From: Candidatus Kaiserbacteria bacterium RIFCSPHIGHO2_01_FULL_53_29
GTDB taxonomy: Bacteria > Patescibacteriota > Minisyncoccia > Phycocordibacterales > UBA2100
Assembly (NCBI GenBank): GCA_001781125.1
Contig: MFKT01000009.1
Coordinates: forward strand, 10,712-74,711
Direction: 5' to 3'
Length of the DNA stretch: 64,000 nt
In this document: positions 32,984 to 34,894 of the stretch, one piece after another
Layout: each line of letters begins with the position of its first letter
Numbering within the stretch: position 1 is the stretch's first letter
Translations under genes and position numbers: made by a program
The notes under the pieces: generated by a model
What the model saw: the letters and a program-made list of their open reading frames with translations, nothing else
What the model was told of the DNA's origin: nothing
Databases searched by the model: none

Positions 32984-34894
32984 TTAATTCCTCGATATCA
33001 CGATGCGCGGAGCACTACCATCCTTCGAGTGCGTGAGCACCATTGCGTCGGTCGTTGCGAAGCGATTCCCCGCGACTGAAACATTTTGGATCGGCGAGAG
33101 AACCGGCTGGATCACTGCATCGATCTTCTTGGCGGTCGCTTCCACTATCTTTGCGGGAGCCGAGGCAACCGAGGCGACTGACTTGCGAGCGGCAAGAACC
33201 GTTGCGATCGTCATGGCACCACCTTTGTAGTAGACCAAGAGGTAGCCGCCGGCGACCGCGAAGGAAAGAAGCGAGAGCCAGTAGAGAGCATTGCCGAGGG
33301 GTCCGAAGTCGAAGCCCGTGTACGGAATCTGCGAGAGCGAGACGTACGGAGCAGGAGCGACGTAATTGTAGGAAGTCGTTTGGCACGTGTTGGTACCCCC
33401 CGGTCCCGTGACGGTCATCACGTAGGTAGTGTTGCCGATCGGATATACCGTCCGTGATCCGTAGGTCGAGACCGTGCCGATGTTCGGGCTGATGTAGGCC
33501 GACGTCGCGTTTTGCGATGTCCAGCTCAAGGTCGCCAACTGGTTGCTGTAGGAACCGTAATTACCACTAGCGTTGTTGGAGATCGTGATGGTGCAGTACG
33601 GCTGTTGCTGGTATGTCGGATACGTCGGCTGCGGATAGACGTATTGGATCGGGCGATACACGGGGGTCTGGTAGACAGGGGTGACCGGCGCAGTCGTGAC
33701 GTTGTGACTATCGTTGTAACTTCCGGAGATGTTGTGGCTGTCGTTGTAGCTGTCGTTGATGGAGTTGTCTGTGAAGGTTGTGTTGCAGGTGTTCGTCGCG
33801 GTGCAGGTGTTCGTGGTGTTGGTCGTCACACTCGGCTGCGGCTGGAAGATCGGCGGCTGCGGTTGCTGTGGGACAGTACAGTAAGGGAACGTGCCGAACG
33901 TACCAGCGGGGCAGAACTGCGCGAACTGTTGCTGCTGTTGCTGTTGCTGTTGCTGCTGTTGTTGCTGCGCAACCTGCTGGATCGGACGCTGTTGCTGTTG
34001 TTGCTGTTGTTGCTGTTGTTGGATTGGACGCTGTTGCTGGATCGGTTGCTGGAAACTCGGATTCGAGTAGAACGAAGAAGGCGCAGCGAAGGACGTCTGC
34101 TGGAACGGGCGTTGCTGCTGCGGGGAGCTTTGCTGGAAGGGGGACTGCTGCGAAGATGCGTAGTTCTGGGAGCTTTTGGAGTAGTCCTCATAGTAGTCCT
34201 CATACGAATACGTGACGTCCTTTTCATACGTCACTTCGTTGCCGTAAACGTCGACCGGAGCATAGTCGGTGTACCCCTTATCATCGACTGGTGCGTAGTC
34301 AGTGTAGCCAAGGTCGGAACTGTAATCTGTATATCCAGCATCAATCGGACTGTAGTCAGTATATCCCGCATCGAGGTTGCTGTAATCGGTATATCCTGCA
34401 TCGAGATTGCTGTAATCGGTATATCCAGCGTCGAGGTTGCTGTAATCGGTATATCCCGCATCGAGGTTGCTGTAATCGGTATATCCTGCATCGAGATTGC
34501 TGTAATCGGTATATCCAGCGTCGAGGTTGCTGTAATCGGTATATCCTGCATCGAGATTGCTGTAATCGGTATATCCTGCATCGAGATTGCTGTAATCGGT
34601 ATATCCAGCGTCGAGGTTGCTGTAATCGGTATATCCCGCATTGAGATTGCTATAGTCCGTATAGCCGGCATCAGGCAGCGTCGAGTAATCAGTGTAGCCA
34701 GCGTCAATGTTGCCGTAGTCGGTATAGCCCGGGCTATAGTCGCTGAAACCGGAATAGTCCGTGTAGCCGGCATTGTCATCGAATTGGGCATACGCGAGGA
34801 TAGGAAGCGCAAGGCTGCCGAGCGCAAAAACAAATCCCCCCACGAGAACGGCTGCACGAGCGGCACGATTATTATCGAAACTGATTACATTCAT
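32984..34894 (-). CDS. secreted repeat-rich surface protein: signal peptide, about 13x DAGYTDYSNL decapeptide repeats, poly-Gln tracts, Thr/Asn-rich region, IPYTG plus transmembrane helix
   Basis: 636 aa. N-terminal signal peptide. 30-bp DNA tandem repeats. (CAG/CAA)n. Late segment SQIPYTG-FDFGPLGNALYWLSLLSFAVAGGYLLVYY-KGG resembles a sortase sorting signal. Confidence 0.7.
   Translation of the reverse strand: MNVISFDNNRAARAAVLVGGFVFALGSLALPILAYAQFDDNAGYTDYSGFSDYSPGYTDYGNIDAGYTDYSTLPDAGYTDYSNLNAGYTDYSNLDAGYTDYSNLDAGYTDYSNLDAGYTDYSNLDAGYTDYSNLDAGYTDYSNLDAGYTDYSNLDAGYTDYSNLDAGYTDYSNLDAGYTDYSPIDAGYTDYSSDLGYTDYAPVDDKGYTDYAPVDVYGNEVTYEKDVTYSYEDYYEDYSKSSQNYASSQQSPFQQSSPQQQRPFQQTSFAAPSSFYSNPSFQQPIQQQRPIQQQQQQQQQQQRPIQQVAQQQQQQQQQQQQQQFAQFCPAGTFGTFPYCTVPQQPQPPIFQPQPSVTTNTTNTCTATNTCNTTFTDNSINDSYNDSHNISGSYNDSHNVTTAPVTPVYQTPVYRPIQYVYPQPTYPTYQQQPYCTITISNNASGNYGSYSNQLATLSWTSQNATSAYISPNIGTVSTYGSRTVYPIGNTTYVMTVTGPGGTNTCQTTSYNYVAPAPYVSLSQIPYTGFDFGPLGNALYWLSLLSFAVAGGYLLVYYKGGAMTIATVLAARKSVASVASAPAKIVEATAKKIDAVIQPVLSPIQNVSVAGNRFATTDAMVLTHSKDGSAPRIVISRN
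33926..34021. repeat. (CTG/TTG)n simple repeat, encoding poly-Gln on the minus strand
   Basis: Two runs of about 14 and 11 Gln codons. Confidence 0.9.
34261..34760. repeat. 30-bp tandem repeat array (about 11 near-identical core units 34319-34650, with degenerate flanks)
   Basis: Unit tgtaatcggtatatccNgcRtcgagRttgc. It is coding (GYTDYSNLDA), not a CRISPR array. Confidence 0.9.

Follow-up and report, generated by a model that had tools for sequence, protein, structure and literature searches.

In a 64,000-nt stretch of DNA (hereafter the window; G+C content 54%) from Candidatus Kaiserbacteria bacterium RIFCSPHIGHO2_01_FULL_53_29 (contig MFKT01000009.1, positions 10,712 to 74,711), we found a gene whose 636-aa product carries a repeat array towards its N-terminus and a sortase-type signal towards its C-terminus. 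We consider it probable that this protein is a dedicated substrate of the unclassified sortase encoded nearby, and that its sorting signal is an extended one with a cytoplasmic tail that has a function of its own. Repeat surface proteins anchored through a sortase-type signal are known already; what is new here is an invariant, lineage-specific motif joined to an atypical conserved cytoplasmic extension. The organism belongs to the Candidate Phyla Radiation (CPR) and is represented by a groundwater metagenome-assembled genome (MAG), as is Candidatus Kaiserbacteria bacterium RIFCSPLOWO2_12_FULL_53_8, in which the sortase and the threonyl-tRNA synthetase (ThrRS) encoded next to the repeat gene are identical too. 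Like other CPR bacteria, Kaiserbacteria remain uncultured and are probably dependent on other cells. To our knowledge, almost no CPR surface proteins have been characterised; of all their proteins these are the likeliest to mediate host contact, and the repeat protein is a candidate of this kind.

An initial annotation of the window had described positions 32984 to 34894 as a surface protein with an LPXTG-like signal near its C-terminus and a sortase gene 5.5 kb away. These positions correspond exactly to one open reading frame (ORF) on the minus strand, and the product is genuinely an exported surface or membrane protein. The parts that bear on sorting are as follows.

32984..34894, minus strand: the whole gene, encoding a Kaiserbacteria LSQIPYTG-family surface protein of 636 aa (ORF list, homologues, and an identical ORF in three other assemblies).
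33314..33337, minus strand: the motif L-S-Q-I-P-Y-T-G, aa 520-527, a putative sortase recognition site with presumed cleavage between T and G.
33224..33313, minus strand: the conserved spacer FDFGPLGNA and the transmembrane (TM) helix, aa 528-557 (hydropathy, AlphaFold2 model and conservation).
32987..33223, minus strand: the predicted cytoplasmic tail, aa 558-636, net charge +5, with a short helix, a variable linker and a terminal beta-hairpin.
32987-33058, minus strand: the conserved terminal beta-hairpin TDAMVLTHSKDGSAPRIVISRN, aa 613-636 (AlphaFold2 strands at model residues 185-190 and 199-204).
40379..41068, minus strand: a membrane-anchored sortase of 229 aa, the candidate processing enzyme (PF04203 and TIGR01076 above cutoff).

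The segment SQIPYTG, followed by a hydrophobic helix and KGG, is present as annotated, with IPYTG at aa 523-527 and the codon of its isoleucine starting at nt 33328. A 21-residue hydrophobic helix (aa ~537-557, Kyte-Doolittle peak from aa 536) comes after FDFGPLGNA and is itself followed by KGG, so that a membrane segment begins within about 10 residues of the motif, which lies 9 aa before the helix. When all six frames of the window were scanned for [LIVAM]PxT[GAS] followed by a hydrophobic segment, the IPYTG site was the only match. The protein then continues for 76 residues after KGG, and not for about 95 as annotated, which corresponds to 79 residues after the helix and 109 after the glycine of IPYTG. 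The net charge of +5 in the tail, compared to -35 in the repeat region, is positive inside and consistent with a cytoplasmic location of the tail.

The motif is the most constrained part of the protein, because the highest conservation in the family is found in this juxtamembrane segment. A search with the C-terminal 204 aa returned 60 homologues from Kaiserbacteria, Paceibacterota and Patescibacteria, all named 'hypothetical' and with no Pfam domain; in 29 aligned homologues the L, Q, I, P, Y, T and G columns of the motif were invariant. A profile of the 45-aa motif and TM module was also searched against 1.84 billion cluster representatives (clusters at 50% identity), yielding 683 clusters at E<=1e-3, of which 281 reached E<=1e-10. 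Of the 184 proteins that were fetched, 179 carried IPYTG directly after L[ST]Q (counted as 179/180 members). The segment is therefore essentially invariant among orthologues and is not an incidental feature of one sequence. Mean column conservation, computed over 126 members, was 0.85 for VSLSQIPYTG, 0.79 for the FDFGP.GNA spacer and 0.69 for the TM helix, and fell to 0.58 in the terminal hairpin, 0.47 in an immunoglobulin (Ig)-like domain preceding the motif and 0.26 in the linker of the tail.

The extension after the helix is likewise a conserved family feature and not an accident of annotation. In the best 150 clusters, the end of the motif and TM module always lay 75-160 residues from the C-terminus, and the median distance from the glycine to the end was 109 residues among the fetched proteins. 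The C-terminus reads P[RKQ][ILV]3.R in 142 of 165 long-tail members, within a hairpin pattern …DSM…G.APRIVI.R, and it is confined to the family (85/85 occurrences in about 1.5 Mb of loci). When one genome per GTDB species was scanned, at least 260 loci encoded relatives. All of the best 80 loci came from CPR MAGs, most of them under the names Kaiserbacteria, Paceibacterota or Parcubacteria; some are labelled 'uncultured Candidatus Saccharibacteria', which we suspect to be mislabelling. In the searchable literature we found no account of an IPYTG/PYTG or Q-I-P-Y-T-G sorting motif, nor of the family.

The 5.5-kb distance to the sortase also agreed with the annotation, the two genes being 5485 bp apart as measured from the start of the repeat gene. 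The enzyme scored 67.2 bits against PF04203 (cutoff 26.6, E=1.4e-18) and has a TM anchor at aa 14-40 according to hydropathy. The His-Cys-Arg triad is intact, and its residues H141, C209 (in LTxxTC) and R218 show no variation among 47 orthologues. None of the class-specific NCBIfam models reached its cutoff (158-166), the scores being 43 bits for class E, 37 for C, 31 for D, 26 for F and 25 for GN. The best PDB sequence match was a class C sortase, and it was weak (8t28_A, E=2.4e-6). A separate feature of the enzyme is a juxtamembrane stretch at aa 26-44 outside the TM anchor (F..…A.S.G.VP…D), at least 90% conserved in the same orthologues. Sortases are common in CPR (PMC6744442), and this was the one pertinent statement that the searchable literature gave on sortase signals in CPR.

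Gene order links the two proteins across relatives. The recurrent arrangement is gyrB, a divergent CARDB-like membrane protein, the sortase, variable small secreted or membrane proteins, the LSQIPYTG protein, a convergent thrS, and dnaE. Of the 41 loci for which the full 10 kb upstream was available, 38 had a same-strand sortase, at 2.9-10 kb from the motif (median 6.1 kb). The sortase recurred in 48 loci, and the corresponding counts were 35 for the CARDB-like protein and 22 for a hexapeptide-repeat protein; each interior gene of the island in the window recurred in at most four other loci. In an otherwise fluid island, the sortase is thus the one enzyme that is conserved, and no second sortase is present; in some islands there are two or three LSQIPYTG paralogues. 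A 266-aa multi-TM protein (36169-36969) was considered as an alternative processing enzyme and rejected, being present in only three other loci. The repeat protein is the only recognisable candidate substrate beside the sortase of this lineage, and LSQIPYTG offers a concrete candidate recognition sequence for an unclassified CPR sortase.

Short-tailed relatives place the motif in a more familiar setting. In the same lineage, and often in the same island, we found proteins in which Q-I-P-Y-T-G and a TM helix are followed by 6-12 mostly basic residues and a stop. Examples are found at loci L056, L084/P0027, L042 and L058, with C-termini such as …IRSRMFAGRSVR, …RGQAKLMRAN and …FARYSGRVLA. A word-indexed profile search with the 45-aa module, which returned three fragments, also found a protein fragment of Candidatus Adlerbacteria (L100 1-180, JAQBQX010000038.1) near thrS-dnaE; it ends in LNQVPYTG, a TM helix and KKVQNKLVARLAK. 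The V-P-Y-T-G form in Adlerbacteria indicates that the motif occurs in a canonical sorting-signal context outside Kaiserbacteria as well. Because Q[IV]PYTG occurs before a TM helix and a short basic tail in these paralogues and in Adlerbacteria, a sortase signal, with putative cleavage, is the best reading of the motif.

We propose that the precursor would be exported via its cleavable signal peptide and that the C-terminal helix would keep it in the membrane, leaving the basic tail on the cytoplasmic side. The sortase would then recognise L(S/T)QIPYTG, a form of LPXTG with the pattern I-P-x-T-G that stands 9 residues ahead of the helix, cut after Thr526 and link the ectodomain to the cell wall or the envelope. 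Candidate motif peptides for the sortase ectodomain (residues ~35-229) would be VSLSQIPYTGFDFG and PYVSLSQIPYTGFDFGP. The mature protein would present a membrane-proximal Ig-like domain, a stalk rich in Q, N, T and P, and a distal acidic array of Tyr/Asp-rich decapeptides, perhaps serving as an adhesin or a brush. This array would be specific to each species and would gain or lose whole blocks in frame through recombination or slippage. The tail (about 80-110 aa with its terminal beta-hairpin) would most likely act before or after cleavage, for instance by helping to position the precursor or by staying in the membrane as a remnant.

Several observations weigh against this proposal, and some of them favour a different protein altogether, namely an uncleaved type I membrane protein serving as a receptor or tether. 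In that case LSQIPYTGFDFGP would be a structural or partner-binding juxtamembrane element, the hairpin would couple the ectodomain to an intracellular partner, and the sortase would be near merely through regional synteny. The protein does not end in a short positively charged tail but runs on for 79 residues past the helix, and in 89 of 110 distinct signals of the loci at least 90 residues follow the glycine. Its extreme C-terminus, peculiar to the family, is conserved, which is unexpected for a segment that is merely discarded. Conservation also runs beyond the glycine through the spacer and the TM helix, the spacer FDFGP.GNA.YW being more strongly conserved than in classical signals, and the residue directly past the helix is K, R, Q or S and thus not always basic. 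Pfam and NCBIfam hold no model for the family, and neither of the LPXTG-anchor models PF00746 and TIGR01167 matched at E<=0.1. Moreover, the housekeeping flanks (gyrB, thrS and dnaE) are syntenic as well, and therefore the proximity of the sortase is not fully independent evidence. However, in the conserved core P, T and G stand exactly where the sortase consensus has them, and the core lies at the canonical distance from a helix. Paralogues and relatives share the same motif with classical short basic tails that leave no room for a cytoplasmic domain, and the sortase is the sole conserved enzyme of the fluid island. We regard an uncleaved receptor or tether as the chief rival but rather unlikely, and favour the dedicated sortase substrate.

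The AlphaFold2 model, made for the C-terminal 205 residues from an alignment of 29 homologues, has a seven-stranded beta-sandwich with predicted local distance difference test (pLDDT) values >90, followed by the motif within a poorly ordered linker and a TM helix at model residues 100-125 (pLDDT about 90). Past the helix it has a short helix, a disordered linker and a terminal beta-hairpin (pLDDT 70-82). A Foldseek search of this model against PDB gave generic Ig/PKD-like sandwiches only, all at E>0.01.

Another reading is that the protein is a pilus or fibre subunit, which a class-C-like sortase would polymerise by joining Thr526 to a lysine of the next subunit. The weak class C match of the enzyme, the position of an Ig-like domain before the motif and the two or three paralogues in some islands could be taken in this sense. 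However, lysine is absent from the Ig-like domain (aa 431-522) and occurs nine times in the whole 636-aa protein, which makes a pilin unlikely; there is also no YPKN-type pilin motif. Furthermore, the class C NCBIfam score of 37 is far from its cutoff of 160, the island has a single sortase, and the ectodomain is mostly of low complexity instead of being built from tandem Ig/CnaB domains. A pilus subunit is thus highly improbable.

A bolder suggestion concerns the conserved tail of the proposed substrate. L(S/T)QIPYTG, the TM helix and the cytoplasmic beta-hairpin might together form a new two-part module of Paceibacteria that serves both sorting and signalling, although we give this idea only a small chance of being right. 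If it were true, the ectodomain would be moved to the envelope and a membrane-anchored remnant of ~110 residues would be left behind, the hairpin of which would direct precursor sorting or report surface-protein processing to the cell. The sortase signal would then double as a transmembrane signalling device. In Streptococcus gordonii, the membrane-retained 'C-pep' of sortase A substrates is reported to be sensed by a two-component system (summarised in PMC11326707). This sets a precedent for a TM remnant that is functional after a sortase has cleaved its substrate; C-pep derives from a classical short signal, whereas the Kaiserbacteria remnant would hold ~80 cytoplasmic residues and a conserved hairpin. 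No sensor kinase was seen in the island.

Comparison with known systems shows both likeness and difference. Proteins with an LPXTG cell-wall sorting signal are substrates of Gram-positive sortase A, and some carry repeats, such as the Clf/Sdr adhesins with Ser-Asp repeats. The Kaiserbacteria protein resembles them in its signal peptide, its repeat region prone to length change, its Ig-like domain, and its [LI]PxTG followed by a helix and a positive cytoplasmic side, and its genome encodes a sortase with the His-Cys-Arg triad. It differs from them in the invariant 8-mer L[ST]QIPYTG with a conserved downstream spacer, in a long tail that ends in a conserved beta-hairpin instead of a short basic tail, in being unrecognised by PF00746 and TIGR01167, and in its CPR host. 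Its Ig domain is also membrane-proximal and its repeats are distal. Dedicated sortase-substrate pairs include SrtB with NPQTN, class D with LPNTA, class E with LAXTG, and the class GN 'marine' sortase with a single target. As in these pairs, one sortase is found near one to three substrates with a lineage-specific, tightly conserved variant of the motif; unlike in them, the sortase is below every class-specific cutoff and the tail of the substrate is extended. The family offers an unusual case in which a conserved cytoplasmic domain comes after a sortase-type signal. Building a Pfam or NCBIfam model for it would improve the annotation of hundreds of 'hypothetical proteins'.

The part of the protein before the motif consists of the following segments.

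34787..34894, minus strand: the predicted signal peptide, aa 1-36 (…LPILAYA|QFDD), with a hydropathy peak at aa 11-38 and an AxA site placed by reading the sequence.
34250..34774, minus strand: the region of acidic/aromatic decapeptide repeats, aa 41-215, with 17 GYTDY units and a net charge of -35.
33905..34249, minus strand: the Q-rich region, aa 216-330, containing two poly-Q runs (11 and 14 residues; poly-Q DNA at 33926-34051).
33605..33904, minus strand: an N/T-rich and P/Y/Q-rich low-complexity spacer, aa 331-430.
33371..33598, minus strand: the Ig/PKD-like beta-sandwich, aa ~433-508, with two conserved cysteines (C…TC), seven strands and AlphaFold2 pLDDT >90.

The N-termini of orthologues resemble the signal peptide region. 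Homologues also carry an N-rich segment like that of the spacer. Two profile matches in the protein were rejected as compositional: Pfam PF25296 (Decapeptide repeat; 24.8 bits, cutoff 45) and NCBIfam DotG-IcmE (59 bits, cutoff 750). Two further ORFs, at 33512-35137 on the plus strand (541 aa) and at 34231-34866 on the minus strand (211 aa), were discarded, like other overlapping ORFs, as shadow frames that reflect the repeats or codon bias and not genes.

The annotation had counted about 11 near-perfect 30-bp repeats and two (CAG/CAA)n poly-Q runs, and it had proposed that these could drive phase or length variation. Tandem Repeats Finder located the 30-bp repeat at 34320-34672 with 11.8 copies (88% matches, score 499), and 17 units containing GYTDY are present in all at aa 41-215, nine of them exactly DAGYTDYSNL and one NAGYTDYSNL. 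The core units differ at synonymous codon positions only. The array can also be read as a 90-bp super-period with 4.5 copies at 34320-34731, because the core units cycle in a three-unit pattern. The poly-Q runs are encoded by mixed CAA/CAG codons with a 9-bp period. Since the 30-bp, 90-bp and CAA/CAG units are all multiples of 3, changes in their number would alter the length of the protein and cause no frameshift. On/off phase variation was therefore rejected, every repeat unit being in frame and the variants observed being in-frame blocks of 90 bp and 240 bp; the length part of the proposal is supported.

The number of repeats is not invariant between strains. In the same species the 636-aa protein is identical in three other assemblies. 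In strain L090, which is 99.7% identical to the window (29 mismatches in 13.5 kb), the gene has a clean 90-bp deletion that leaves 14 instead of 17 units and a protein of 606 aa, and is otherwise unchanged. In a second species, two Kaiserbacteria '_55_25' MAGs, L003 (9242-10867) and L045 (9200-10585), have 3 mismatches in 20 kb, and their orthologues differ by one clean 240-bp block (541 vs 461 aa). In-frame variation of repeat length between near-identical assemblies is thus supported. The pair L001/L093 was uninformative as a strain variant, with 86 nt of unrelated sequence at the 5' end and an N gap inside. Between species, the N-terminal array is swapped for other units rich in D, Y, G, S, T and W with periods of 21-120 bp, such as DGWGGS, SYDYQPLDT, DLGYYDSYGDN and WGDTTYSDG, and several related GYTDY forms were found too. 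Poly-Q length in the orthologues ranges from 1 to 15.

A caution that bears against our interpretation of the array is that short-read assemblies can collapse repeats, so that the length variants could partly be artefacts. In the strong form of this explanation, the differences would all come from assembly, and the array would not vary within populations, the only variation being that from one species to another. Both variants amount to exactly one near-identical super-unit (90 bp or 240 bp), which is a typical signature of short-read collapse; 17 units are found in 4/5 complete assemblies; and several assemblies break or hold N gaps at the gene. However, L090 is a distinct strain by its mismatches, which makes a genuine difference plausible, the loss of whole blocks is also expected from recombination between repeats, and the complete divergence of units between species requires ongoing turnover. 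We consider a pure assembly artefact possible and lean towards real variation.

In-frame change of repeat number is known from the alpha C protein of group B streptococci and from the fungal Als/Flo adhesins. The Kaiserbacteria array is like these in its near-identical in-frame DNA repeats, in the gain or loss of whole units between close strains and in its position at the exposed end, and unlike them in that units are wholly replaced between species and variation is known from metagenome assemblies alone and is not known to be linked to immune or host selection. Altogether, the family is widespread in its lineage, apparently has a consensus promoter, and has an outer tip that is specific to the species and variable in length.

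The promoter in question lies just upstream of the gene.

34946..34973, minus strand: a sigma-70-type promoter match, 12/12 (TTGACA-16-TATAAT), 52 nt upstream of the ATG (consensus match only).

On the other side, the 78-bp gap to the convergent thrS is filled with hairpin terminator-like sites. From these sequence elements, the repeat gene looks to be transcribed independently.

Other genes of the island were noted in passing. Directly downstream of the sortase (3 bp), the gene at 39500-40375 (minus strand) encodes a secreted protein of 291 aa made nearly entirely of hexapeptide-like 'VG' repeats; it has no sorting motif, its weak left-handed beta-helix/LpxD-type matches were below cutoff, and its homologues occupy the same position in 22 related loci. 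Divergent from the sortase, 41112-42215 (plus strand) encodes a membrane-anchored protein of 367 aa with a Y/N/Q/P-rich C-terminus, the orthologue of which is labelled CARDB (weak) and which is conserved beside the sortase in 35 loci. Two small exported proteins, at 35571-36008 and 37449-38144 (both minus strand), have similar Cys-flanked ends, …CFKLPNGNERCPNRWVK and …CFTLPTGIRRCPNQ; they appear paralogue-like and show poor conservation across other islands. Two further elements lie inside the island, in the interval that separates the repeat gene from the sortase operon: an insertion sequence (IS)-type transposase with HTH_23/rve domains at 37959-38849 (plus strand), and a ParE-type toxin with a small antitoxin-like ORF upstream at 38929-39440 (minus strand). 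The transposase and ParE labels were taken from Pfam in the gene table of the identical contig L090. Finally, the ThrRS at 31652-32905 (plus strand) is only 417 aa long and comprises the core and anticodon domains, compared to 580 aa in relatives at this locus, which have a tRNA_SAD-type N-terminal part. The short form may reflect a loss of editing or N-terminal domains in this lineage.

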